Source: Solirubrobacterales bacterium (GTDB lineage Bacteria; Actinomycetota; Thermoleophilia; Solirubrobacterales; 70-9). From it: a stretch of DNA of 37,549 nt. This document shows, in pieces, positions 20,272 to 33,429 of the stretch (its first letter is position 1; each line of letters opens with the position of its first letter). A program made the position numbers and the translations under genes. The stretch is from positions 1 through 37,549 of the forward strand of contig DATCBF010000178.1 of the NCBI GenBank assembly GCA_036512025.1, written 5' to 3'. Below the pieces are notes generated by a model. The model searched no databases and was not told the DNA's origin. It saw only the letters and a program-made list of their open reading frames with translations.

Positions 20272-22452
20272 ATGAGCATCACCGAGCAGGTCACCGCCGA
20301 GCAGGCCGATACGGGTGAGCAGACCCGAGCGCGCTACCCGGATGAACAGGGCTACATCGAGCGCGACGGCGTGCGCGTCTTCTACGAGGTCTACGGCGCC
20401 GGCGAGCCGACGATCTTGTTCTGCCCGACATGGACGCTCGTGCACTCGCGGGTGTGGAAGATGCAGATCCCCTACCTCGCCCGCCATCACCGTGTGGTCG
20501 TCTTCGATCCGCGCGGCAACGGCAAGAGCGACCGGCCCGGCGCCGTCGAGGCCTACGCCGAGTCGGAGTTCGCTCAGGACGCGCTCGAAGTCCTCGACGC
20601 GACCGGCACCGAGCGGGCGTTCGTCGTCGGCCTCTCACGCGGCACCCAGCGCGCCCTCCTGCTCGCCGCCGAGCACCCCGAGCGGGTGCTCGGCCTGGTG
20701 CTGATCGGCCCATGGTTCCCCGCCAGCCACTCGCTTGGCGGCCTGCGCTACCGGATCATGTCCCATCCGCGGATGAAGCCGGGGTTCAGGCGCAGACCGA
20801 TATCGACACGGGGCTGGGCGAAGTTCAACGCCGTGCACTTTCGTCATGACTTCCGTGATTTCGTCGAGTGGTTCACGGCGATGGCGGCGAACGAGGCCCA
20901 TTCGACCAAGGGCTTCGACGACGTCGTCGGATGGGGCCTGGAAACCGACCCGGTCACGCTGGGCCTGACCGTGCTCGCCGATGCGGCGGCGCCGGTCACC
21001 CGCCGCGACCAGCTCGCGCTCGCCCGCCGCGTGCAGTGCCCCGTGCTCGTCATCAGCGGGACGAAGGACAAGGTGACCAGCCACGCCGACGCCAGACTGC
21101 TGGCGAAGGCGACGGGCGGAAAGCTGATGGCGATCGAGGGCGGCGACCACGTCCCGGAGGGGCGGCGCCCCGTCGCCGTGAACCTCGCGATCCGCGAGTT
21201 TGTCGACCCCTCCTTTCAGCGAGACCCCACGGTCCATCGCGCCGACGGCCGGCCCCGAGCGCTGTACGTCTCCTCCCCCATCGGCCTCGGCCATGCCCGC
21301 CGAGACACCGCGATCGCGCGCGAGCTGCGCACCCTCGTCCCGGACCTGCAGATCGATTGGCTCGCCCAGAACCCGGTGACGCGGGTGCTAGAGACAGAGG
21401 GCGAGCGCATCCATCCCGCGAGCAGGCATCTGGTCAACGAGTCGGCCCACCTCGAATCCGAGTCCGCCGCGCACGACCTGCAGTGCTTCCAGGCCATCCG
21501 GCGCATGGACGAGATCCTGACCGCCAACTACATGGTCTTCGACGACGTCGCGGGCGAGACGAGGTATGACCTGTGGATCGGCGACGAGGCCTGGGAGCTC
21601 GACTACCACCTGCACAAGAACCCCGCCCGCAAGCGCGCGCCCTTCGCCTGGCTGACGGACTTCGTCGGCTGGCTGCCGATGCCCGAGAACGGCGAGCGCG
21701 AGGCGTTCGTGGCGGCGGACTACAACGCCGAGATGGTCGAGCACATCCGCGACCACCCGGAGATCCGCGACCGGGCGATCTTCGTCGGCAACCCCGACGA
21801 CATCGTCGGCGACCGCCTCGGGCCCAACCTTCCGGGGATCCGCGAGTGGACCGAGCGCAATTTCGACTTCTCCGGCTACATCACCGGCTTCGACCGGGCC
21901 GAGCTGCGAGACCGCGAGCGGCTGCGCGCCGAGCTCGGCTACCAGCCGCACGAGCGTGTCTGCCTGGTCACGGTCGGCGGCTCGGGCGTGGGCGCGGACC
22001 TGCTGCGACGGGTCATGGCGGCCTTCCCCGCCGCATCGAAACTCGTTCCCGAGCTGCGGATGATCGTCGTCGCCGGGCCGCGCATCGACCCGGCGACGCT
22101 GCCCGCCGCCGCCGGCCTGGAGGTGCGCGCCTACGTCGACGACCTCTACCGCCACCTCGCCGCCTGCGACCTCGCCGTAGTCCAGGGCGGGCTGACGACC
22201 ACCATGGAGCTGACCGCCGCACAGCGGCCATTCCTCTATTTCCCCCTGCGCCACCACTTCGAGCAGCGCTTTCACGTCGCCCACCGGCTCGACCGCTACC
22301 GAGCCGGCCGCCGGATGGACTTCGACCAGGCCGGCCCTAACGTCATCGCCGAGGCGATCGCCGAGGAGATCGGCCGCGACGTCGACTACCGCCCGGTGGA
22401 AACGGACGGCGCCCGCCTGGCGGCACAACGCATCGCAGAGCTACTCAACTAA
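20272..22452 (+). CDS. Fusion protein: N-terminal alpha/beta hydrolase plus C-terminal GT-B glycosyltransferase (GT1/GT28, MGT/MurG-like)
   Basis: N-terminal half has a GLSRG nucleophile elbow, HRVVVFDPRGNGKSD and GGDHVP. C-terminal half has SSPIGLGHARRDTAIAREL, GGSGVG and QGGLTTTMELTAAQRPFLYFPL..HFEQ. Confidence 0.8.
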   Translation: MSITEQVTAEQADTGEQTRARYPDEQGYIERDGVRVFYEVYGAGEPTILFCPTWTLVHSRVWKMQIPYLARHHRVVVFDPRGNGKSDRPGAVEAYAESEFAQDALEVLDATGTERAFVVGLSRGTQRALLLAAEHPERVLGLVLIGPWFPASHSLGGLRYRIMSHPRMKPGFRRRPISTRGWAKFNAVHFRHDFRDFVEWFTAMAANEAHSTKGFDDVVGWGLETDPVTLGLTVLADAAAPVTRRDQLALARRVQCPVLVISGTKDKVTSHADARLLAKATGGKLMAIEGGDHVPEGRRPVAVNLAIREFVDPSFQRDPTVHRADGRPRALYVSSPIGLGHARRDTAIARELRTLVPDLQIDWLAQNPVTRVLETEGERIHPASRHLVNESAHLESESAAHDLQCFQAIRRMDEILTANYMVFDDVAGETRYDLWIGDEAWELDYHLHKNPARKRAPFAWLTDFVGWLPMPENGEREAFVAADYNAEMVEHIRDHPEIRDRAIFVGNPDDIVGDRLGPNLPGIREWTERNFDFSGYITGFDRAELRDRERLRAELGYQPHERVCLVTVGGSGVGADLLRRVMAAFPAASKLVPELRMIVVAGPRIDPATLPAAAGLEVRAYVDDLYRHLAACDLAVVQGGLTTTMELTAAQRPFLYFPLRHHFEQRFHVAHRLDRYRAGRRMDFDQAGPNVIAEAIAEEIGRDVDYRPVETDGARLAAQRIAELLN

Positions 22453-22589: not shown

Positions 22590-23102
22590 TCAAGGGTGCA
22601 GCCGCCCTCGCTTTCGATGTCGACCGAAACGTAGGAAAGATAAGGTAACGCCTTCCGCCCGCATCGCCAGAAAGCCACCTAAGACGATACCGAGAGAGGC
22701 AACGAGGGCGAAGAAGATGCCGCCCTTAAGTGTCGGTTCGATCAAGAAGCCTTCCGGGAGTTCCCTCGAGCCGGGCGGGGAAACCATCCGAGTCAGGATC
22801 AAGAGCGACGCGAGGCAGCCAAACACGGTCACCGCCGCGTTAGCGGGGACCGCCGGCTTCCAATCAAAGCCGGCGAGGCGCATGAGCACCGACCCAAGCG
22901 CGACAGCGATCGCTAACACCAAAAAGATCGGGATCACTTCGAGCGTCTGCCAGGCATTGCCGCCGCCGAAGGGAACAAACCGCACGAGCAAATTCCCCAA
23001 GTTCCCTTTGACGTCAAACCACTCAAAGAACATGGAGATGAAGAGCAGGATCGCCGAAGCGCCGGCGATCGTCTCGCCATATTTGAGCCTATTTAGGTCC
23101 AT
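22590..23102 (-). CDS. Four-TM membrane protein, unknown function
   Basis: 170 aa from the ATG at 23102 (MDLNRLKYGE...) with an AGGTGA SD and four hydrophobic segments. Lower G+C than the backbone. Confidence 0.55.
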   Translation of the reverse strand: MDLNRLKYGETIAGASAILLFISMFFEWFDVKGNLGNLLVRFVPFGGGNAWQTLEVIPIFLVLAIAVALGSVLMRLAGFDWKPAVPANAAVTVFGCLASLLILTRMVSPPGSRELPEGFLIEPTLKGGIFFALVASLGIVLGGFLAMRAEGVTLSFLRFGRHRKRGRLHP

Positions 23103-23227
23103 ATGCCGCTCACCTTTCTGGCCAAACACGAGCGCAGCGAGAATACGCCCCGTGGTCGCTCCTTGGCCGAAACTTGCACCCGCAACAGGGGCGTGCTTAG
23201 CGTTCCTGCCTGTAGGTTCACCGAACC

Positions 23228-23758
23228 TCACCCATCCTGCTTGAGGCTAAGGGGCCGCATCAACGGATCATCAAGGATCCCCGGGACTACGTTCGGAGGC
23301 ATCCTATATGGATGGAGTAACGGCTCTACCAAGGTTTCGGATCCTCGTTCAGCCACTACGACCTCAGACGCATTTCGCGACTGATATTCGGGCGACCATA
23401 CGGGCGCACCGCTGTCACCGTGGGCGGGCGGCTCGTTGAATTCAACCCAATATCCCCCTCTGGCAATCCCATCGCTTGCCCCGATCCAGCGCGTCGAGCG
23501 AGCAACGACGGGACCGCACTGAGGCACTGTCGTCTTGGCGCCGGAATAGCAGAGATAATTGCCTATTCTCGCTTTTCCCGCCTGCCCGACGGGTATTAGG
23601 TGTCCCTCTAATCCGTATATATCCTGAGGAACGATGCCAGCGTCCTCGACTCGAATCGCCTCCGCATCGGTGCGCTCCGATGACGTACTTTCTACGGATG
23701 CGATGTCGTTTCCGGGTGCTTGCGCTTCTGGATGAAGCAGTAGTGCTTTGGCTTGCAT
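23228..23758 (-). CDS. S1 (chymotrypsin-fold, streptogrisin/alpha-lytic-like) protease C-terminal half only; probable truncated paralog
   Basis: AIRVEDAGIVPQ and HGDSGAPVW (Asp and Ser regions) are present, but no TAGHC His region. The in-frame upstream extension overlaps the neighbouring gene and shows no homology. Confidence 0.5.
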   Translation of the reverse strand: MQAKALLLHPEAQAPGNDIASVESTSSERTDAEAIRVEDAGIVPQDIYGLEGHLIPVGQAGKARIGNYLCYSGAKTTVPQCGPVVARSTRWIGASDGIARGGYWVEFNEPPAHGDSGAPVWSPEYQSRNASEVVVAERGSETLVEPLLHPYRMPPNVVPGILDDPLMRPLSLKQDG

Positions 23759-23847
23759 TGACGCAGCAACATTCTTAGCCCCAACCGGGATGGCGGACGC
23801 CGGGGACACACTCGGTTGTCCTGAACGAAGTCTTGACGTCAGTTGTT

Positions 23848-24336
23848 CTAGTGCACCCGGAACTCGGCCATAAGGTTCATTGACTTGGTTTTCAGCTTCG
23901 GCGCGACTTTCTTCGACACCCGATAGAGGCCGGGTGCGGCCTGGCTTGGAATGTCGATCCCCTGACAGGCGCTTGCCGTCCCGGCACGCACGAAAGATCG
24001 TGATTTGAAAAATGGCCCGGTCCGCTGCTTGACCCAAGATCCACCTTCCCATCGCGCAAGCTCGTATGCGAGTCCATATACAACATCTTCCGTGCCGAGA
24101 TCTTCTACGCGCACGCGCAGCTGACCACCAGGCCTGACGCTTCCCCGGTCAACTCCCAAGCGCACCTTGAAAGGAGGCGGGACGGCTACCACATCGATGC
24201 TCGGCTCACTGCAGAAGCCACCTCCTCCGCTTGCAAGGAGGCCTCGGCTGGCTGCAACCGAAAACGAGACGTTGCATGACGCCACGAAGACAAATGCAAG
24301 AGCCGCAACCCTGACCGATCGAATACGTAGCTTCAT
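23848..24336 (-). CDS. Secreted beta-sandwich-like protein (possible protease-inhibitor-like fold)
   Basis: 162 aa with signal peptide VAALAFVFVASCNVSFSVAA and a GGGAGGAAG SD. The pattern G..LRVRVEDLG...Y.L.RW.GG.W......F...........IP..A.PG.YRV is beta-rich. Confidence 0.6.
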   Translation of the reverse strand: MKLRIRSVRVAALAFVFVASCNVSFSVAASRGLLASGGGGFCSEPSIDVVAVPPPFKVRLGVDRGSVRPGGQLRVRVEDLGTEDVVYGLAYELARWEGGSWVKQRTGPFFKSRSFVRAGTASACQGIDIPSQAAPGLYRVSKKVAPKLKTKSMNLMAEFRVH

Positions 24337-24358
24337 GGCTTCCTCCCTTACTCGTCGT

Positions 24359-25238
24359 CTACTTCCACGTAATTATATGGAGCGGTTCGCCTTCTACGCC
24401 AAGAGCAGGCAGACTGCCCTGAGCTTTAGGATAGCCCGGAATTTCCTCGACTGGAGTAAACCATGAAGAGTTTGCGATTCCCTCAGTCAAAGTCCCAACA
24501 GCATCTCCGGTAGCGCGCTCCCAGTAAGGCCTCCGCTATCCCCGGGTGCAGTCGGAATTTCGGTCCTGATCGTACAGAGAACAGGGTTTCCATTTTCGTG
24601 CTCTTCACCCCAGCGTTCACATTTGGGCGGCCATTCTGCTGGGCCGCATTTCACGTTAGGACTGTACTGCCCTGCCCGACACACCACCATTCCTTCTTTC
24701 ACGGCCGTCGCTCCATTGATCCTGCGAAACTGCGTGTCGGAATAGCGAATGAGACGCGGCACGATGCTCGGGTCTTCTACTCTAATCGCCTCACCCGCTG
24801 CCAGGCAAATTTTCCTTCCGGGGATGTTTCCCACTGCTTGACTTCGGTCCCAGGCGTAAAGCAGTGTCCTGCGGTCGTGATGAAATCCCGGTAAAGGACA
24901 CTCCCGTCGGGCCTTACTCCTCCTTTATCCCACGCACCCCAGCCAACGCTACATTCCTCTTCTGAGCGTTCGGGTTCTCCAAGGAACGTCGCGCCTAGCA
25001 TCTCGCCGGCCTTTACAGGACCGGTCGGGCTAGCCTTAATTCTCTGGAAAGACGGGCGTTCTTTCGCGGCTTCGTAGTAGACGCTAATAGGCACCCCAGC
25101 GCCGAAGTGCGATTTCACAAACCCTTCAACTTCCGTGACATTTGATGCTCCGATGTCCAGCCATGGGGACGACAATGGGGACGCCATACCTGACTCGCCG
25201 AGGAAGGGCGGTAAGACCAGGGGTGTCACCACCCGCAC
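24359..25238 (-). pseudogene. S1-family serine protease gene disrupted by two frameshifts
   Basis: ITTAGHCF is in frame 1 (ORF 24777-25238). AIRVEDPSIVPR...GDSGG is in frame 2 (ORF 24487-24834). The expected continuation PYWERATGDAVGTLTEGIANSSWFTPVEEI...TWK* is in a third frame, entered at about 24530 and ending at 24359. Confidence 0.65.
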
Positions 25239-25664
25239 TCAACCGATGCGGACAAGTAGGAGGACCCCAAGAGCGGCACCGATGACACCAAGCGACCAGA
25301 GCCAGATCCTGGCGTAGGCGCCGATGAGCCCATAGCCCCGCGGCCTTCTTCCCTTCGCGTCATCCAAATACGTGGCGTTGGCGATCTCCGCCCCCGGTCC
25401 CGGCTCCTCCTCGACTAGTGTCTCGTCCAGCAGCCGTCGGGCATCCTCGGCCTGACCTGTACGGACCATGACCCGTTGTGAGCCGGGCGGCAAGAGGCCG
25501 ATGCCTAGCAGTGGGCCATTCAGGCCAGTCGGCAGGAGAAGGCTCGGGATGCCACCGTTCTCGAGGAGGCCCTGAATCATCCCCGCCTCCGTGGGGTCGT
25601 TGGCGAAGGCGATCTTGACCAGATCGGCACCCGACAGGCCATCCGTTGTCTCGATCTTTCCCAT
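25239..25664 (-). CDS. DUF2007-like (putative signal-transducing) domain protein with a C-terminal TM anchor
   Basis: LVKIAFANDPTEAGMIQGLLENGGIPSLL...VMVRTGQAEDARRLLDE fits the DUF2007 pattern. The C-terminal helix is IWLWSLGVIGAALGVLLLV. Its stop abuts the protease pseudogene start. Confidence 0.65.
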   Translation of the reverse strand: MGKIETTDGLSGADLVKIAFANDPTEAGMIQGLLENGGIPSLLLPTGLNGPLLGIGLLPPGSQRVMVRTGQAEDARRLLDETLVEEEPGPGAEIANATYLDDAKGRRPRGYGLIGAYARIWLWSLGVIGAALGVLLLVRIG

Positions 25665-25950
25665 GGCCGCGAAGAGTAGCCGCGTATTGGCGAGAACAGA
25701 GCTTTAAAGAAGATGGACACCGACCTCCACAGTGGGGTGCCTTCACCACGGTCGTCCAGCTTCGCGCCGCCGATACGAGCCGGGCCGTCGCCGCCCTGGA
25801 CCGCAGCACCGAGACCCTGAACAAGCTGACCTGGGTGCTTGTCGTTCTCGGCCGGGGCTCACTCGTCATCGCCCTGGTCGCGCTGGTCGTCGCTCTCTAG
25901 GCCCGACCTTTGCCCACCAGTTCAGCACCGGAAATCCTGGCCATCGGTAG

Positions 25951-26154
25951 CTATCCCGCCTCAGGCCCGAGGTCGGGCTCCGTTCGCAGCGGTACAGCGA
26001 GTGGCCCGGTGGCGCCACCCACTTCGGGATCGGGATGGGCGACGAAGAGAGCTGCCTGTTCGGCGTCGGAGCGAAAGCCGGAGACGACGATCAGCGAGAG
26101 ACCGGCGCCTGTGGCCGCGGGCGCCATGCGGTCGAAGCTGCGGCCACATCGGGC
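25951..26154 (-). pseudogene. Remnant of a VanY/M15-type D-Ala-D-Ala carboxypeptidase-like gene
   Basis: On the minus strand, SFDRMAPAATGAGLSLIVVSGFRSDAEQAALF resembles the SGYRSxxxQxxL core. PKWVAPPGHSLYR is readable only in another frame, and RTEPDLGP back in the first frame. Both ends are truncated. Confidence 0.3.
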
Positions 26155-26317
26155 TCATCCCCTCACCCTGGCGGTATTTGTTTGCGGCTATTCAGATAAC
26201 CAGAATCGAAAACTGAGCCTTCAGCTTTGATCTACAGCAGGTTAGGTGACCACTACGTCGCTCAAGCCCCGAGCGTCCGGGGAAGCGCAGGAGCCATCGA
26301 TAAATGACGTTCGGTGA

Positions 26318-26704
26318 TTAAGAGATCCCTTCAACTTCAAAGTGTCGGGCACCGTAATGACATGTCACCTCACGCGGAAACTTTGAGCGCGGGTAGATCC
26401 GACAGACCCACTGCTGTGTCCGCGAATTTTCTGCAGTTGCTCGAATAGTTACTGTCTGCGTACCCACTGCACCCGATAGCACCGAAACAATCGACCCTAA
26501 TTTCACGCATGTAAGCCTGCTGGTCTCTGGTCTAATCCGGGCCTTTTCTCCGTGAACCCCCACCATACATGGACGGCTTTCCGTCGAAGATGCCACGTTC
26601 TTAGCGCATGCTAAGCCCGCAAACGCGCAACCAATCACTACAAGACCAATCAATATGAATAGATGAAATCGCACTTTTGAAGTATAGCCTCTCGTAAACA
26701 CCAT
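26318..26704 (-). CDS. Small Cys-containing secreted hypothetical protein
   Basis: ATG at 26704 shares one nt with the upstream TAA (TAATG). Signal-like helix FHLFILIGLVVIGCAFAGLACA. Low G+C. Confidence 0.45.
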   Translation of the reverse strand: MVFTRGYTSKVRFHLFILIGLVVIGCAFAGLACAKNVASSTESRPCMVGVHGEKARIRPETSRLTCVKLGSIVSVLSGAVGTQTVTIRATAENSRTQQWVCRIYPRSKFPREVTCHYGARHFEVEGIS

Positions 26705-27060
26705 TAGTAGAAATCTTTCGGCGAAAGACCGACCTCCGACCATCGCGTCTCCTTGGAAACGGTGCCACTGCTCAGCAGTGTGTTTAGATCCTTGAGACTT
26801 CTGGGTCCACGAGCGGCGACGAAATCGAATGCTGCGGCAAGGCCAGTAGACCGGCTCCCGTTCGTAGAGCCGACAACACCGAGTCTATGGCCCTGGTCGA
26901 CGAGCCCGAGGAGCGTCGGCATGACTAAAGCCAGGTTCACCAGTCCCGCAGCGTTGATGACGGCGGTTAACGTTCCCGGGCGCAGCTCAAGCCCGGTTGA
27001 GACCTGGGACTGGATTGGGTAGGCCATTGCCTCGAAGCTAGCGAGAGCATCGGTGGGCAA
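26704..27060 (-). CDS. Hypothetical protein
   Basis: 118-aa ORF, translationally coupled to the downstream gene. No recognisable motif. Confidence 0.35.
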   Translation of the reverse strand: MPTDALASFEAMAYPIQSQVSTGLELRPGTLTAVINAAGLVNLALVMPTLLGLVDQGHRLGVVGSTNGSRSTGLAAAFDFVAARGPRSLKDLNTLLSSGTVSKETRWSEVGLSPKDFY

Positions 27061-27139
27061 ACAGCGCCAAGCGGTCGCAAGGTGCGGGATTCGGCACTGC
27101 CGAAATTGAAGGTTGTGAGAATCGCGTCTAGCCGAGGCC

Positions 27140-27202: not shown

Positions 27203-27213
27203 GCAATCCCTGC

Positions 27214-27264
27214 CTAGAAGCCGAGTGCGAACTTGGCGTCGTCGGTCATCATCGCTGCGGACAA
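27214..27264 (-). repeat. Displaced duplicate of the 3' end of the DUF59/SufT gene (att-like core)
   Basis: The minus strand reads (stop)LSAAMMTDDAKFALGF(stop). The last 12 codons encode the same peptide as 33115-33150, and every nucleotide difference in them is synonymous. Confidence 0.75.
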
Positions 27265-27306
27265 CTACGTGAAAGCCCCTGCAAACACCACATTGTTTCC
27301 GTGCGC

Positions 27307-27325
27307 GGGGACAGCCATGGGGACG
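27307..27325 (+). repeat. Second copy of the GGGGACAGCCrTGGGGACG 19-mer
   Basis: 18/19 identical to 27142-27160. It lies on the other side of the sufT-like remnant. Confidence 0.7.
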
Positions 27326-27358
27326 AAGAGTCGCCTAACTCCCGGTTTGCACCGACTC

Positions 27359-28108
27359 CTAGGCTTTTGCTTCGTGAGTCTGCATCAAGAACAGGGCCAT
27401 CGAGCCGGCTAGATTGACCGCAAGGGCTGCATGTCGAGCGGCTGGCCTATATCCGCTTCGCCCGGGACCGTGGGAATCCGAGACACGATTGCGCAGGCTG
27501 CCGATTTCTCTGACGACTGTGGTGCATGCTCCTAGAATCGCTTTGAACTGCTCCTCGGTGTGGTCGCTCGGAGCAAGATTGAGGGTGACTGAAACCACCC
27601 GGTAGAGAGCGGGGAGGTCGTCGCGCTCGCGATACGAGACTTTGCGATCGTCGAGAATCGTCTTGCAGACCGACTCAAGCAGAGTCCGCGCCGACGTGAC
27701 AGCTCCGTCGGGATCGGCCTGTCGGCGCTCGAGGGCCTTATCCCAGGCCTGTTCGATCGAAACCGCATTGATCGCCACCGCCCTCTCGAAAACCAAGGCA
27801 TCCAGCGGGGAATCATCGGCGACCTCAAGCGCCGCTAGCAAGGGCTCGAACTCCTCGCGCAGGAACTTGCGGCGCGACTCGTAACTCGGAAGCTCTGGAT
27901 CGCAGCCCTTGATATAGCTCCAAACGGCATCTGGCTCGCGGCAGATCCGGACGCATTGCGGAGCAATCCGCTTGCCGGTCGAGTCAGCGAGTACAACCCG
28001 TCGGGCTCCAGCGAAGTCATGCTTGCTGACCTCGCCACCGTCGGTGACTCGGGCAATCATGTATTGGAGCAGCTCACTTGCAGCCTCGAAGGTCTCGTGG
28101 TCGGCCAT
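27359..28108 (-). CDS. Abi_C-domain (abortive-infection C-terminal, HEPN-type) protein
   Basis: The C-terminal half ARTLLESVCKTILDD...ILGACTTVVREIGSLRNRVSDSHG...AARHAALAVNLAGSMALFL matches the Abi_C pattern and contains an Rx4-6H motif (RNRVSDSH). I prefer the ATG at 28108; a TTG at 28129 is an alternative. Confidence 0.7.
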   Translation of the reverse strand: MADHETFEAASELLQYMIARVTDGGEVSKHDFAGARRVVLADSTGKRIAPQCVRICREPDAVWSYIKGCDPELPSYESRRKFLREEFEPLLAALEVADDSPLDALVFERAVAINAVSIEQAWDKALERRQADPDGAVTSARTLLESVCKTILDDRKVSYRERDDLPALYRVVSVTLNLAPSDHTEEQFKAILGACTTVVREIGSLRNRVSDSHGPGRSGYRPAARHAALAVNLAGSMALFLMQTHEAKA

Positions 28109-28166
28109 CGTCGGGGCGAATCTTGCCAAAGTGCCGAAGCCTCAAGTGGATTCCGAAGGCGCGAAC

Positions 28167-28185
28167 TGCGCTCAATTGCAGCGCA
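28167..28185. promoter_or_regulatory. Inverted repeat in the Abi_C / CBASS divergent intergenic region
   Basis: TGCGCT-caattgc-AGCGCA. A related CTGCAATT(T)G motif recurs at about 28254 in the opposite orientation. Confidence 0.25.
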
Positions 28186-28416
28186 TACAAGCCTGGAGTC
28201 GCTATCCAGGCCCGCGCTGAATGGGATGACTGTCAATCCGACCGCGAAAACCCTGCAATTTGCGGCGCTAGGGGTGAGCATTACCGTCCGCTCACAATGA
28301 GACCGTCGCTGTCTTCACAAAAATACCGGTGATTGCAACTACCAATACGAGACCATACCCATGAGATATGACAGAAAAGTGAGCCTCTCGACGCGAACCG
28401 GCCCGGCGGTGGGCTG

Positions 28417-29592
28417 ATGGCTTCACCGCTCTTCCTTAGCTACGGCTGGAGTGACGGATCGCCGCCTCCTGTTGTCGAGGAGCTAGATCGCCTGCTGCAA
28501 CTGCGGGGGGTGCCGATGTGGAGGGACCTGCGCGATCTCGGCGCCGGCGGACTGAACGAGGAGGTTGCCGGAGCGGCAATCCGCGAGGAGTGCTGCGGCT
28601 GCATTCTCCACTTCACCGAGCAGATTCTCGACTCTTGGTTCATCGGAAGCGTCGAGCTGGAGGCGGTCCGCCATCGGCTCGACCGTGATGAGGACTTCTT
28701 CCTCGCCGCAGTCTTCGACGGGGTTGGCAAAGAGCAGATCGAGTCGCTTGAAAAGGAGGCCAGCCTCAATCTACGCGCTTTTCAGGGGCTCTTCCTCGAT
28801 TCGACCAAGGACATCGGCGAGCAGCTCGAGGGCTTCTCGAGTCAGCTGCTGCGCCGCTACCTGGAGGGCATAGACATTGAGCAGCCGACGGCCCGGGTCG
28901 ACAGCTGGGGCCGAATCCCTTGGAAGGATGCAGCTCCGATCCAGCTCAACTGGGCCGGTGAGGACGACGGGGATGGCCAGCTCCCGGCCGATTGGGACGC
29001 GCTCAAGCGGGCAGTCACGGATCTTCGTGCGGCCCTTGGGGAGCTGACGACGGAGCGCGTGCTCCGTCTGAATGGCACTATCCACCTGTCTGCGGCATTC
29101 CTGATCGGCTGGGAGTTTCGCGAGACCACCGGTTGGACTATCGAGGCCGATCATCCGCGAGCGGGGGTGACCGTTACGACAATGCGGCCCGACCCTCAGG
29201 GCTGGACGATTACGCCCCTGCCCTCGCAGAACGACTCGGGCTCAGTCATTGTCCGCGTCTGCGCCAGCGCCGACTGCTCACATGCAGTGCGCGCCCATCT
29301 CGCAGAGATGGATCGGGCCCGCGCGGAACTGGCCGTGTTTCCTCCCGGCGGTAAGACCGGCCGCTTCAGCGTCGACGATTTCGACCTCAACGGCCTTGCC
29401 ACCGCGATCATCGCCGCGGTCCGCAGCTGCCGAGAGCGTTATGGAGTCGAGGTGACCAAGCTCTACCTCGCCTCCCCCTGGACCCTGGCGCTGACTCTCG
29501 GCTGGAACTTCGCCAGCAGCGGCACGCTTGTTGTGTACGAGGCAACGGCTGACAAGTCCACCTACCACCCCACTCCACTTCAACTTCCCTGA
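28417..29592 (+). CDS. TIR-SAVED effector (N-terminal TIR-like domain, C-terminal SAVED-like cyclic-oligonucleotide sensor)
   Basis: N-terminus LFLSYGWSD...ILHFTEQILDSWFIGSVELEAV is TIR-like. The C-terminal ~240 aa contains two CARF-like half-repeats (LNGTIHLSAAFLIGWEF... and LYLASPWTLALTLGWNF...VVYE). It lies first in an operon with a CD-NTase. Confidence 0.75.
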   Translation: MASPLFLSYGWSDGSPPPVVEELDRLLQLRGVPMWRDLRDLGAGGLNEEVAGAAIREECCGCILHFTEQILDSWFIGSVELEAVRHRLDRDEDFFLAAVFDGVGKEQIESLEKEASLNLRAFQGLFLDSTKDIGEQLEGFSSQLLRRYLEGIDIEQPTARVDSWGRIPWKDAAPIQLNWAGEDDGDGQLPADWDALKRAVTDLRAALGELTTERVLRLNGTIHLSAAFLIGWEFRETTGWTIEADHPRAGVTVTTMRPDPQGWTITPLPSQNDSGSVIVRVCASADCSHAVRAHLAEMDRARAELAVFPPGGKTGRFSVDDFDLNGLATAIIAAVRSCRERYGVEVTKLYLASPWTLALTLGWNFASSGTLVVYEATADKSTYHPTPLQLP

Positions 29593-29602
29593 GGAGCCCA
29601 AA

Positions 29603-30607
29603 TTGTCACTAGAGGACGCTTTTCACAACCTGCAGGAAGAGGTCAACGCCGATCCCGTCCAAGTTGAAGAGGCTCGCGGCCGGCGCGAAATGTTCCAGGC
29701 CGCCTTCGCAGGAGAGCCGGACGGCGTCAACTCGGTGCCCAGCGGGTCTCTCGCACGCGGCAGCCAGATCGAACCGATCAATGACGTCGACCTGCTCTGG
29801 GTCTACCAGCCGAGTTCCTGTGCCGACTGGACCCCTGAGGATGCGCTGGAGCACACCAGGGAGCGGATCAAGGAGTTGCTCGGGTCGGAGTCGGCACTTG
29901 TCGAACTCTTCGGCGAGCAAGGTCGCAGCATGCGCTGGGTCCGCGAAACGCGCCTGCAGAACCATGCCGTCAAGTGCTTCCTCGATGACCCCGAAGACGA
30001 GGACGCATTCACGGTCGACGTCGTCCCGGCGCTGGCACGCGACCCCCGCGGCTTCTGGATTCCCGAGAAAAGCAGCGCCAGCTGGATCGAGACCGACCCG
30101 GTGCTCCTGATCGAACGGGTGCTGGAGCGCCACGGTGGCTATGGAGAGGGTCAGTTCGTGCAGTTGATCCGCGTGCTGAAGCGCTGGTCCAAGGACAATT
30201 CGCGGGTGATCAAGGGTCTAGCGATCGAGGTACTCGCCCTCGATCACCTGCCAGACGCCGAGCGCCAGGTCGCGCTGGCCCGATTCTTCGAGGGTGCTCT
30301 CAACCACATCCGCGAGCCGATCCTCGACCCGGCGAGACTCTGTGGCGAAGTGCAGCCCGACCTCGACCGCGACCGAGCCGAGGATCTCCTGAGAAAGGCG
30401 GCGGACCTGTCAGCAAGAGCCGTGGTCGCCGACCAGAGGGGCAAAATCGAGGACGCCCAGTGCTTATGGCGCGAACTCTTCGGTGAGATCTTCCCCGAGC
30501 CCCCCGGCGGCTGCGCCAAGGAGAGCGACGGCAACGGGGTCAAGGCTACCGCCACCGCCAGCGCCCTCGGCAGCCGCAGGCGTGTGCAGCGGGTTGAAGA
30601 GGGATGA
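29603..30607 (+). CDS. CD-NTase / SMODS cyclic-oligonucleotide synthase
   Basis: PSGSLARGSQIEPINDVDLL (GS...DxD), FTVDVVPA (third acidic residue), WIETDP and LIRVLKRWSK are present. TTG start at 29603 has a GAGGAG SD. The protein ends in ...RVQRVEEG. Confidence 0.8.
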   Translation: MSLEDAFHNLQEEVNADPVQVEEARGRREMFQAAFAGEPDGVNSVPSGSLARGSQIEPINDVDLLWVYQPSSCADWTPEDALEHTRERIKELLGSESALVELFGEQGRSMRWVRETRLQNHAVKCFLDDPEDEDAFTVDVVPALARDPRGFWIPEKSSASWIETDPVLLIERVLERHGGYGEGQFVQLIRVLKRWSKDNSRVIKGLAIEVLALDHLPDAERQVALARFFEGALNHIREPILDPARLCGEVQPDLDRDRAEDLLRKAADLSARAVVADQRGKIEDAQCLWRELFGEIFPEPPGGCAKESDGNGVKATATASALGSRRRVQRVEEG

Positions 30608-30608
30608 A

Positions 30609-31118
30609 ATGGAGCGCACTCCAATCTCATGGATCGAGGCTGAGCCCGATCGCGTCGAACTCGAGAAACGCGAAATGGCCGATCGCGCTCCCGAGATGGC
30701 ATGGCGTGAAGGCGAGGATCTGCCCAGCGGAGGCTTCGAGGGCCTGGCACCTGAGTGGCCATTTGACCGTGACCCGCCTGAGAAGCTCGACAGGCTGACC
30801 GAGGGCAAGCAGCTCTCGGTGCAGGTCCGCTTCTTCGAGGGCTACCCGGCCCAACCACCCCGGCTCTTCGCGCTCGATCCCGAACCCTCGGTCGAGGAGC
30901 GCCTGCGCGAGGAAGTCCACGTCAATGGCGACGGCTCGATCTGCCTGATCCTCCACCCAAGCGACTGGAGCAGCAGCGAATGCGCAGTCGAGCTCGTGAC
31001 CAAGGCGTCGGGCTGGTTCCTCGAGTACCTCGCGGTAGGACGCGGGCTGATCGAGGCTATGAGCCCGGCCGGGATGTTTGCAAACACCGAGCTTGACGCC
31101 AAGATCGAAGAGCTATGA
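30609..31118 (+). CDS. Stand-alone E2 (UBC-like) protein, Cap2 E2-domain equivalent
   Basis: FFEGYPAQPPRLFAL...HVNGDGSICL is the UBC-fold YPxxPP plus HxN...G.ICL catalytic-Cys motif. It starts 2 nt after the CD-NTase stop. Confidence 0.8.
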   Translation: MERTPISWIEAEPDRVELEKREMADRAPEMAWREGEDLPSGGFEGLAPEWPFDRDPPEKLDRLTEGKQLSVQVRFFEGYPAQPPRLFALDPEPSVEERLREEVHVNGDGSICLILHPSDWSSSECAVELVTKASGWFLEYLAVGRGLIEAMSPAGMFANTELDAKIEEL

Positions 31119-32455
31119 CCCGCGAGCTGCTGCTGATTACGGCCGAGACCGCCCAGAGGATCGCGGCAAGCGGTGCCAAGTGGGGCCATCTCGGCCTCGC
31201 CGTCAACGTCCCCGAAGAGATCTACCATGTGGTCAGCTGGTCGGTGAAGGGACACACCCACTCCCCAGCCACCGAGGGCTGGAGCGAGCACACCGCGGGC
31301 CACTCGTTCAAGGGCGGCGACGGTAACGCACTCTGGTATCGGGGCACATACGAGCTGCACGACCGTGGCCGCCACGACTCGGTAAGAGGGCAGGCGACCC
31401 CCATCTCCATCATGCAAGAACAGGTCGAGGGGGACTGGCTGACCTTCAAGCGGCTCCTCCTCATGATCACCTTCTGCGAGCGCGACGGACGCACCGAATG
31501 GGCCGCCTGGAAGCGTTCCGGCGAGGATTCCTTTTGGCCAATCGATATCGAGATCTTCGACCACGAGGCCGATCTACTAGCACCATTGGGAGGGGCCTGG
31601 CCCCGTGAGGCTCTCTCCGAGAAGCTCGTCACCGTGGTCGGCGTGGGCAGCGTAGGCGGCGCAGCCTGTGAGGCGATGGCGGCCTATGGCATCCGTAGGT
31701 TCGCCCTCGTCGATGAAGACCGCCTGCTCTCTAGGAACTTCGCCCGCCACCGGGCAACCCGACGTGATCACGGCAGGTTCAAGGTCGATTCGGTCGCCGA
31801 TCTCCTGAAAGAGCGCGACCCCTTGATCGAGGTTGAGGCGCTTCGCGCCAACGTCGCTTTCGACGCCAACACGATTCGGCCGCTCCTCGCCAAAAGCGAC
31901 CTCGTGGCCTGTTTCACCGACGGGCCGGAGAGCCGCAGGGTCGTCAACCATCTCGCCTTCCGTGCGCGCCGGCCAGCCGTGTTCGGCTGCGTCTTGGACT
32001 TCGGGAGCTACGGCGAGACGCTCGTGTTGCGGCCAGGTTGGACGGGCTGCCTCGAGTGCAATCGAGTTTCGCTGCGCGAGAGCATGGAGCTCGAGCTCGG
32101 GCTCGAGTACTCAGAGATTCAGGAACGGCTGGCGCCAACCGACGGTCAACATTTCGGCATGACACGGGCCTTCAGCCACTACGGAGTCGACCCCGGGGTG
32201 CTCGGCACAACCGCGGTCGGCGGCGACCTCCATTTGGTCGGCGGGTTCTCGGCAAAGGCGGCAGTGGCAATGCTGCTGCGAAGTGCGGGCTACCGCGAGC
32301 AGCGACTTCCGGGTAGCCATGCCCTGATCGGCCTACGCCCTCCGGTGATCGCCGATCCTGAACCCTTTAACCGCGTCGGACGGGTCGGTGAGGTGGCATG
32401 GCTGCCGACCGCCTCACCCCGGCCGGAGTGCCGTACATGCGGGGACGGAACATGA
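31115..32455 (+). CDS. E1-like (ThiF/MoeB adenylation fold) protein with a ~170-aa N-terminal domain, Cap2 E1 equivalent
   Basis: VVGVGSVGGAACEAMAAYGIRRFALVDEDRL is a Rossmann/ThiF motif. CxxC pairs are CLECN and CRTCG. ATGA overlap with the E2 gene. Confidence 0.8.
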   Translation: MTRELLLITAETAQRIAASGAKWGHLGLAVNVPEEIYHVVSWSVKGHTHSPATEGWSEHTAGHSFKGGDGNALWYRGTYELHDRGRHDSVRGQATPISIMQEQVEGDWLTFKRLLLMITFCERDGRTEWAAWKRSGEDSFWPIDIEIFDHEADLLAPLGGAWPREALSEKLVTVVGVGSVGGAACEAMAAYGIRRFALVDEDRLLSRNFARHRATRRDHGRFKVDSVADLLKERDPLIEVEALRANVAFDANTIRPLLAKSDLVACFTDGPESRRVVNHLAFRARRPAVFGCVLDFGSYGETLVLRPGWTGCLECNRVSLRESMELELGLEYSEIQERLAPTDGQHFGMTRAFSHYGVDPGVLGTTAVGGDLHLVGGFSAKAAVAMLLRSAGYREQRLPGSHALIGLRPPVIADPEPFNRVGRVGEVAWLPTASPRPECRTCGDGT

Positions 32456-32976
32456 GCGGCGCGGTCGTGATCTCGGAGCGAGTGATGGATGAAGTCCGCA
32501 ATATGGCGCGTGATTCAGAAGATGGCAGCGAGACGGGCGGAATCCTGCTCGGCTTCGAGGAGATTGACGGCAGCTTCTGGGTGACCGAGGCGGGCGGGCC
32601 GGGGCCCCTGGCCGAGCGCTCCCCGACCTACTTCTGCCGGGATCTCGACCACGCCGAGGTGATCGCCGAGCGAGCGTTTTCGATCGACGGCTCTCAGTGG
32701 GTAGGCGATTGGCACACCCATCCCGGCGGCCCCAACGCCCTCAGCCACGTTGATCTGCGCAGCTACCGGGAGGTTCTCGTCAACAGCGACCTCGAGGTCT
32801 TTCTGGCAATCCTTCTCCGCCCCGGCCTCAAGGGCTGGCAGCAGCCGCGCGCCACAGCCTTTGCGGTCAGCGCCTCCCGGGTTCAGCCGATCCGGATCAT
32901 CGACCTCCTGGGTGGGCGCCTGTTGAATCGCGGGATCGGCACCTCTCGCGACGATCACATTAGCCCGCGAACCTGA
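32452..32976 (+). CDS. cap3: JAB/JAMM metalloprotease (Cap3-like)
   Basis: SETGGILLG plus an exact JAMM motif HTHPGGPNALSHVD (HxHx7Sx2D). ATGA overlap with the E1 gene. Confidence 0.85.
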   Translation: MSGAVVISERVMDEVRNMARDSEDGSETGGILLGFEEIDGSFWVTEAGGPGPLAERSPTYFCRDLDHAEVIAERAFSIDGSQWVGDWHTHPGGPNALSHVDLRSYREVLVNSDLEVFLAILLRPGLKGWQQPRATAFAVSASRVQPIRIIDLLGGRLLNRGIGTSRDDHISPRT

Positions 32977-33024
32977 TCCCAGGGCAGCAAGGTGAAACGA
33001 GGCCGATCCCGGAGTCGTATCCAG

Positions 33025-33046
33025 ACGAGTTGAAAGCGTTACTCGT
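33025..33046 (+). terminator. Possible stem-loop after the JAB gene
   Basis: ACGAGT-tgaaagcgtt-ACTCGT. An alternative pairing is CGAGTT/AACTCG. No U-tract. Confidence 0.25.
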
Positions 33047-33111
33047 GAGAACTCGGTTGATGACACCGGCACGACCCCACGATGCATCTCTAGGAACCCC
33101 GCCTCTAGCGC

Positions 33112-33429
33112 TTAGAAGCCCAAGGCGAACTTCGCATCATCCGTCATCATCTCCGGCGACCAGGCTGGGTCGAAGACCATCTTCGGATGGACCGCGTCGA
33201 CTCCCTCGAGGTCGCCGACGAACTCTTTCATCTGCTCGGAGACCTGGGGGCCGATCGGGCAGGCGGGGGTCGTGAGGGTGAAGGTGACGTAGACGTCGGC
33301 TCCCTCGATCTCGACGTCGTAGACGAGGCCGAGGGAGACGAAGTCAAGCCCCAGCTCGGGATCGATGACCTCCTCCAGCGCCTCGATCACGTCATCTTCG
33401 GTCAGCACGGCGGTTGTGTTCTCAGTCAT
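33112..33429 (-). CDS. sufT: DUF59 / SufT-like (MIP18 family) Fe-S assembly protein
   Basis: 105 aa with VIEALEEVIDPELGLDFVSLGLVYDV...TLTTPACP, the DUF59 signature. Confidence 0.85.
   Translation of the reverse strand: MTENTTAVLTEDDVIEALEEVIDPELGLDFVSLGLVYDVEIEGADVYVTFTLTTPACPIGPQVSEQMKEFVGDLEGVDAVHPKMVFDPAWSPEMMTDDAKFALGF

Follow-up and report, generated by a model that had tools for sequence, protein, structure and literature searches.

An apparently functional type II CBASS operon with separately encoded E2 and E1 in a Solirubrobacterales bacterium, an ordinary member of a known actinobacterial clade

Canonical type II anti-phage systems that signal through cyclic oligonucleotides (CBASS), laid out as capV/cap4-cdn-cap2-cap3 in Vibrio cholerae, Escherichia coli TW11681, Enterobacter cloacae and Klebsiella (NZ_CP063009), bring together a nucleotide-sensing effector, a nucleotidyltransferase resembling cGAS and DncV (CD-NTase) that ends in Gly or Ala, the JAB protease Cap3, and Cap2, a single E2–E1 fusion of ~590–600 aa. 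Cap2 substrates are recognisable by the Gly or Ala conserved at their terminus (PMC10097602; Ledvina preprint), and the linker domain of Cap2, like the N-terminal domain of ATG7, positions the E2 (Ledvina et al.). Here we evaluate a 37,549-nt stretch of a Solirubrobacterales bacterium (GCA_036512025.1, contig DATCBF010000178.1, positions 1 to 37,549 of the forward strand; hereafter, the window), in which five genes at 28417–32976 encode the components of such a system. The locus shares with the canonical operons the Gly/Ala-ended CD-NTase, the JAB/Cap3 protease and a nucleotide-sensing effector, which may come first in the operon, its E2 and E1 have their homologues in Cap2's two catalytic domains, and the N-terminal domain of its E1 is structurally like the Cap2 linker, whereas its E2 and E1 are two polypeptides. 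We consider it very likely that the locus functions as an anti-phage operon of type II CBASS in which the Cap2 function is split over two translationally coupled proteins across an actinobacterial clade; judging from its sequence, the operon is complete, apparently functional and an ordinary member of that known clade.

Several other described systems resemble this locus in part. The type II-C CBASS of Microbacterium ketosireducens (Mke; Hogrel et al. 2022; 7QQK) pairs a CD-NTase with a ‘ubiquitin-like modification system’, as here, and has as its effector a TIR-SAVED protein that carries a catalytic Glu (E84, versus E80 in the window); its CD-NTase makes 3',3',3'-cyclic tri-adenylate (3',3',3'-cA3), which assembles TIR-SAVED into an active NADase (Hogrel et al. 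2022). The Mke and window effectors are nevertheless distant, with only the TIR part aligning well (1.5e-8), and the Mke operon has a NucC that the window operon lacks. Eukaryotic ATG7 with ATG3/ATG10 likewise joins a two-domain E1 to a separately encoded E2, but the substrate of ATG7 is a ubiquitin-like protein (Ubl) rather than a CD-NTase tail, ATG3/ATG10 are unlike the E2 here, which resembles canonical UBC enzymes, and the E1 here has no conserved Cys in its crossover loop, the location of the catalytic Cys in Cap2 and ATG7. In the Bub (6E/DUF6527) system, the E1 BubCD has no crossover-loop Cys, an invariant loop Tyr and a separate E2, all as here, and that Tyr forms an oxyester (PMC11601596); the Bub E2, however, uses Ser where the E2 here has an invariant Cys112, and Bub combines a Ubl substrate with a JAB–E1 fusion, whereas here JAB is a separate gene and the cyclase would be the substrate. 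In type II (short), or E2-only, CBASS a stand-alone E2 lies directly downstream of the CD-NTase, as here; according to a figure legend of the Ledvina preprint those systems lack E1 and JAB, both of which are present and conserved in the systems described here.

The open reading frame (ORF) list and the junction sequences reveal five co-directional, tightly coupled genes on the forward strand, in the order TIR-SAVED, CD-NTase, E2, E1 and JAB. The TIR-SAVED effector (28417–29592, 391 aa) is followed by a 10-nt gap containing GGAG and then by the TTG start of the CD-NTase (29603–30607, 334 aa); after a 1-nt gap comes a stand-alone UBC-like E2 (30609–31118, 169 aa), whose end overlaps the stand-alone E1 (31115–32455, 446 aa) by ATGA, and the E1 overlaps in the same manner the last of the five genes, a Cap3-like JAB/JAMM isopeptidase (32452–32976, 174 aa). 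Pfam matches were obtained to SAVED (3.8e-16), SMODS (7.5e-10), ThiF (9e-26) and Prok-JAB (2.6e-7), with weak ones to TIR_2 (0.0016) and UQ_con (0.051), while PADLOC gave strong full-length profile matches for all five proteins. This five-gene domain match is far beyond chance, and the same CD-NTase-E2-E1-JAB order recurs in ~50 species. An earlier, sequence-only reading of the stretch had proposed a type II CBASS with TIR-SAVED, CD-NTase, E2, E1 and JAB/Cap3, and this identification is borne out by Pfam and PADLOC; the gaps and overlaps it listed agree with the ORFs and junctions, the motifs it quoted for CD-NTase, E2, E1 and JAB are each present, and the CD-NTase and SAVED profiles, whose failure it had named as grounds for giving up the idea, both match. 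All of the expected type II CBASS content is found, namely a CD-NTase, a cyclic-oligonucleotide sensor effector, Cap2-homologous E1 and E2, a JAB and a Gly-ended cyclase tail, and Cap2 is not one E2–E1 fusion polypeptide either here or in any of 51 relatives. That fusion is a trait of the prototype proteins; type II CBASS is defined by domain content, and the PADLOC CBASS models include both halves.

The effector combines an N-terminal TIR (approximately residues 3–103) bearing a putative catalytic Glu80 (28654–28656) with a C-terminal SAVED (approximately residues 190–386), and PADLOC SAVED_TIR matches it over its full length (2.9e-33), with Pfam TIR_2 alone falling under its cutoff (19.4 bits vs 28). 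Its alignment to the Mke TIR-SAVED structure (PDB 7QQK) is the TIR-centred one given above, and it is in this alignment that E80 falls on the catalytic E84. The CD-NTase carries the motifs G48-S49 and D61-V-D63 (GS...DVD at 29744–29791) and D139-VVPA (D139 codon at 30017–30019), matches the PADLOC cyclase profile PDLC00818 over its full length (4.1e-97) and has its best PDB match in 6P8U/6P82, deposited as ‘Nucleotidyltransferase’ (3e-16); G48, S49, D61, D63 and D139 are conserved in 49–50 of 50 sequences. The terminal Gly, Gly334 in the window (30602–30604), is present in 48 of 49 loci, where the residues before the stop read ...RP[IV][KR]D[AS]PQG for the majority of loci and ...RRRVQRVEEG for the subclade to which the window belongs (window 30500–30604; L001–L052). 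Because conservation of this tail extends beyond the terminal Gly, the alignment suggests sequence-specific recognition of the cyclase tail by E1 and/or Cap3.

The E2 has the motif H104-VNGDGSI-C112-L, with His104 at 30918–30920 and the catalytic Cys112 at 30942–30944, and matches the PADLOC E2 profile PDLC00860 (188 aa) at 2.1e-51. All 52 sequences have both H104 and C112, the wider H104-x-N106...C112 pattern is likewise invariant, and the family profile aligns with N-terminal residues 3–113 of Klebsiella Cap2 (hhalign probability 95%, E 3.4e-8) with the Cys and YPxxPP in register. The AlphaFold2 (AF2) prediction, which used database homologues as input, reached a predicted local distance difference test (pLDDT) score of 95.3, and its 50 top PDB matches are all UBC E2s (template modelling score ~0.45–0.53), the best being canonical eukaryotic enzymes such as Rad6, Ubc9 and UbcH5, identifying a UBC-fold E2. 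Four canonical UBC features, an H-x-N eight residues before the Cys, a downstream Trp, YPxxPP and the C-terminal helices, are retained in this stand-alone E2, whereas the E. cloacae Cap2 E2 domain is described as lacking them (Ledvina et al.). The JAB carries an exact JAMM motif (E27 and H88-T-H90-x7-S98-xx-D101, with HTHx7SxxD at 32713–32754), matches PADLOC JAB PDLC00895 at 5.3e-40 beside the Pfam match given above, and matches NCBIfam Cap3 at 4.5e-9, which lies under the curated cutoff; E27, H88, H90, S98 and D101 are conserved in 41–42 of 42 sequences.

The E1 begins with an N-terminal domain (residues ~1–160; 31115–31594) like the ATG7 N-terminal domain and the Cap2 linker, followed by a ThiF-type adenylation domain with the Rossmann motif G176-VGSVGG (GVGSVG at 31640–31657) and two cysteine pairs, C312xxC315 and C439xxC442. 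It matches both PADLOC ‘E1-E2’ profiles over their full length (PDLC00828, 431 aa, 3e-88; PDLC00829, 426 aa, 6e-91), and its family profile aligns with Klebsiella Cap2 residues 307–556 (hhalign probability 99%). The AF2 model (pLDDT 81.5) has E. cloacae Cap2 as its top Foldseek PDB match (7TO3_A, 1.3e-17, 455 columns), followed by BubCD (E 2.7e-15) and then full-length ATG7, and the alignments to Cap2 and full-length ATG7 span 439–492 columns. Because of these matches to Cap2 and ATG7, we read residues 1–160 as the domain common to the Cap2 linker and the ATG7 N-terminus, so that the E1 has both the N-terminal E2-recruiting domain and the C-terminal adenylation domain of the ATG7/Cap2 type, and the E2/E1 gene boundary falls exactly at the border between the E2 and linker domains of Cap2. 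Across the clade the E1 conserves GxGSxG, D200, R211, K223, D269 and the two CxxC pairs; Klebsiella Cap2, in contrast, lacks a four-Cys zinc site of this kind.

The crossover loop of this E1 departs from the ATG7/Cap2 pattern. Delimited as residues 316–365 (32060–32209), from the first CxxC to a conserved TAVGGDL helix, and with residues 341–366 modelled as a low-confidence loop, it contains no Cys that is conserved from C315 to T366: a Cys occurs there in just 3 of the 54 sequences, at differing positions, and the conserved cysteines outside the loop are an invariant C292 and the four zinc ligands. Of the 54 sequences, 53 have Tyr356 (32180–32182), which lies within a GYGTG motif. The window's subclade (the window, L001 and L002) additionally has an insertion of ~20 residues in this loop.

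To place the split arrangement in a wider context, loci were surveyed with one genome scanned per species, revealing 53 loci, every one of them in Actinomycetota, with representatives among Solirubrobacterales (L001, 90% identical), Conexibacteraceae, Gaiellales, Streptomyces, Amycolatopsis, Micromonospora, Actinoplanes, Mycobacterium, Gordonia, Microbacterium and Leucobacter. The gene order CD-NTase-E2-E1-JAB is conserved across loci, and E2 and E1 lie in different ORFs in all 51 loci holding both, the start of one usually sharing 4 nt with the stop of the other. With the E1 as query against 5.8 billion proteins, 67 homologues were recovered, the most distant at 31% identity; they measure 271–451 aa, none reaching Cap2 length, while an exhaustive phmmer search of 1.84 billion representative proteins with the E2 returned 64 matches, all of 58–339 aa. 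Ratios of nonsynonymous to synonymous substitution (dN/dS) against L001 were 0.085 for E2, 0.13 for E1 and 0.16–0.24 for the other three genes, and all five genes are under purifying selection. PADLOC profiles that are 188 aa (E2) and 426/431 aa (E1) long mean that the defence database already has separate clusters for both halves; the split architecture is therefore represented in PADLOC and not novel to this window. For comparison, Iyer et al. 2006 list with a pol-beta nucleotidyltransferase only the fused E2+E1 form (row 6b; PMC1779556), and we found no paper in the literature searched, which did not include the Millman et al. 2020 classification, that explicitly describes E1 and E2 of CBASS as separate genes. 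The NCBI pipeline labels the clade's cyclase and E2 ‘hypothetical protein’, and, since the NCBI models miss these two proteins, the clade is better called under-described than unknown.

Several individual loci have features of their own. The 11.3-Mb linear chromosome of Streptomyces sp. NBC_01390 carries the split CBASS twice, near both ends (L037, 24211–37485; L042, 11264758–11278032), and the two copies have identical tblastn coordinates and identities, probably lying in terminal inverted repeats. The split clade is also found on large linear Streptomyces plasmids, adjoining integrase genes, and in L055, on a Streptomyces anthocyanicus plasmid (NZ_CP109206, 398446–401751), RefSeq's annotation pipeline (PGAP) calls the cyclase and the E2 ‘hypothetical protein’. 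A Gaiellales metagenome-assembled genome (MAG) has a second, distant CD-NTase-like match (L004, 7720–8586; 26% identity) ~4 kb downstream of its split CBASS, which may be part of a second CBASS in the same island.

Across the split clade, SAVED effectors were recognized in 28 of 56 flanking ORFs. The clade's effectors are SAVED fusions: TIR-SAVED in ~10 loci, nuclease-SAVED (~490 aa) in ~17, and CorA-like or transmembrane-SAVED in ~6–7. Their position ranges from upstream co-directional through upstream divergent to downstream, and the canonical operon on Klebsiella plasmid NZ_CP063009 itself runs patatin effector, DncV-like cyclase, 589-aa Cap2, Cap3. Having the effector first is therefore no distinguishing feature, and the expectation, voiced in the sequence-only reading, that CBASS effectors usually lie downstream is not borne out by these observations. 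Two Microbacterium loci of the split clade, L021 and L050, carry a close homologue of the Mke TIR-SAVED, which in L050 is a full-length homologue of 7QQK (E 5e-115), with the effector divergent in these loci whereas it is co-directional in the window. The split clade very probably includes the experimentally studied Mke system. A NucC gene near the Microbacterium-type loci, which would tie them to the published Mke operon, was sought and none was found.

From these data and from characterised homologues, a working model can be outlined. The 446-aa E1, presumably as a homodimer, would adenylate the C-terminal glycine of the CD-NTase and, through its N-terminal domain, recruit the separate 169-aa UBC-like E2, whose Cys112 would take over the cyclase and conjugate it to a target, priming it; JAB (Cap3) would cut the conjugate after the terminal Gly and restrain the system. 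Upon infection the CD-NTase would make a cyclic oligonucleotide, most likely 3',3',3'-cA3 given that the Mke CD-NTase makes cA3 and that the L050 TIR-SAVED is a close homologue of 7QQK, and the ligand would drive head-to-tail assembly of TIR-SAVED, whose TIR (Glu80) would then degrade NAD+ and abort the infection. In this outline, conjugation and deconjugation, the cA3 signal, and the cA3-activated, filament-dependent NADase of the window TIR-SAVED are carried over from homologues, the last of these from Mke.

We weighed this interpretation against rival explanations, starting from the junction itself. The sequence-only reading had found E2 and E1 to be separate reading frames, which they are, and had asked whether the junction at 31115–31118 might be an assembly frameshift. 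A 4-nt ATGA overlap could in principle arise from a single indel in a fused gene, yet a sequencing or assembly error, or a recent pseudogenising fission of an ordinary Cap2, would have to account for the same split at all 51 independent loci, drawn from MAGs and isolate genomes across ~50 species, for an E1 start codon of its own at or near each E2 stop, for two halves neither of which has a Cap2-length homologue, for PADLOC profiles of matching half-lengths, and for the low dN/dS of both genes. The uniform split, the homologue lengths and the low dN/dS exclude this explanation for practical purposes, and the same 51 loci, with full-length PADLOC profiles for each half, overturn the notion that the layout is unusual. 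It is likewise very improbable that the E1, E2 and JAB form an independent Bil- or Bub-like Ubl conjugation module sitting beside a type I CBASS of cyclase and TIR-SAVED: bacterial E1/E2/JAB modules do exist outside CBASS (PMC1779556; PMC11601596), but the locus has no Ubl gene, the cyclase in ~50 loci directly precedes the E2 every time, is tightly coupled to it and ends in the conserved Gly typical of Cap2 substrates, and the best structural match of the E1 model is Cap2. That the operon is an inactive remnant also seems improbable; its lower-GC3 island beside unannotatable ORFs would fit such a fate, but every ORF is intact, no catalytic residue is missing, and dN/dS is well under 1 for the five genes.

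A more serious, though still doubtful, alternative concerns the chemistry of conjugation, in that the E1 might only adenylate, with the cyclase tail passing to E2 Cys112 directly or via a Bub-like oxyester on Tyr356 and no E1 thioester formed. Pointing this way are the scarcity and scatter of cysteines in the crossover loop, the near-invariant Tyr356, and the rank of BubCD, which has no Cys in the loop and relies on an invariant Tyr there (PMC11601596), as second-best structural match of the E1 model; in addition, an Extended Data Fig. 9 legend of the Ledvina preprint describes the E1 Cys of E. cloacae Cap2 as dispensable in vitro, with the E2 Cys able to substitute. On the other hand, the invariant Cys292, not part of the zinc site, could act as the nucleophile, Tyr356 may have a structural role only and canonical Klebsiella Cap2 also aligns a Tyr at its position, and Cap2 C548 could not be mapped residue by residue onto the E1 family, as PDB sequence searches with Klebsiella Cap2, the E1 C-terminal half and the Cap2 C-terminal half gave no usable alignment. 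From the alignments, the clade may therefore skip or replace the E1 thioester, or alternatively may use Cys292.

Returning to the reading of the locus as a functional, split type II CBASS, a number of points weigh against it or narrow it. None of the NCBIfam CBASS models reaches its curated cutoff for the window proteins; the operon is known here from its sequence alone; the E1:E2 interaction is deduced from fold similarity of predicted models; and, with no conserved crossover-loop Cys, the canonical E1-thioester step may not apply. The window cyclase is only about 39–41% identical to the Microbacterium-type cyclases, which makes the cA3 assignment an extrapolation, and separate E2 and E1 genes are very probable rather than observed in the M. 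ketosireducens operon itself.

Around the operon, the CBASS genes have a GC content at third codon positions (GC3) of 0.75–0.81, compared with ~0.9 in flanking housekeeping genes. The downstream neighbours encode an Fe-S assembly protein and a GNAT acetyltransferase; on the upstream side lies a divergent AbiJ-like (HEPN/Abi_C) gene on the reverse strand (27359–28129; Pfam Abi_C 4e-17, PADLOC AbiJ 5.5e-22), outside the CBASS itself but co-inherited with it, and beyond it ORFs of low GC that have few domain matches or none. The gene layout places the presumed promoters of the AbiJ-like gene and of the CBASS operon in the intergenic region 28130–28416, although a scan of 27900–33300, not designed for high-GC Actinomycetota, returned 0 sigma-70 consensus promoters and 0 terminators. 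Window positions 27209–32940, covering the AbiJ-like gene together with the five CBASS genes, are 88.8% identical to positions 2104–7826 of L001, another Solirubrobacterales MAG, and the comparison found no similarity outside this block. Because the block is common to two MAGs whose flanks do not match, its sequence suggests that the ~5.7-kb AbiJ-like + CBASS segment is a mobile two-system defence module; a repeat scan returned short chance repeats only and no island-boundary repeats. Farther upstream, 23000–27100 is of low GC (0.57–0.63) with ORFs mostly lacking Pfam matches, the exceptions being Big_14 (23848–24336, reverse strand) and DUF2007 (25239–25664, reverse strand), and may be further island cargo between a hydrolase gene and the AbiJ-like gene. 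An ARAGORN tRNA-Gly(tcc) call of 93 nt (22339–22431, reverse strand) is a probable false positive, as it lies entirely inside a 726-aa alpha/beta-hydrolase + GT28 ORF (20272–22452) of high GC3 (0.91).

The mechanistic and evolutionary value of these observations belongs to the clade as a whole, of which the window is one ordinary member. By its five-gene signature, complete type II CBASS can be picked out in Solirubrobacterales, Streptomyces, Amycolatopsis, Micromonospora, Mycobacterium, Microbacterium and others. The question, posed in the sequence-only reading, of whether the split offers a natural test of covalent E2–E1 linkage is largely answered already, since ~50 species carry the two proteins unlinked with conserved catalytic residues and a dN/dS of 0.09–0.13; the clade indicates that Cap2's two activities, E2 and E1, can do without a covalent link, and it offers them as separable proteins for biochemistry. 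An E1 without the expected loop Cys could show whether the E1-thioester step is essential, and the clade's layout bears on the evolution of ATG7-type systems. Tentatively, and with the odds as we see them leaning the other way, the split-Cap2 clade might even be a mechanistically distinct branch of CBASS regulation, one combining an ATG7-like E1, whose catalytic loop Cys was lost or was never there and which would hand over the adenylated cyclase tail directly or as a Tyr356 oxyester, with an architecture like that of ATG7 and ATG3/ATG10, of which it would be the closest bacterial counterpart.

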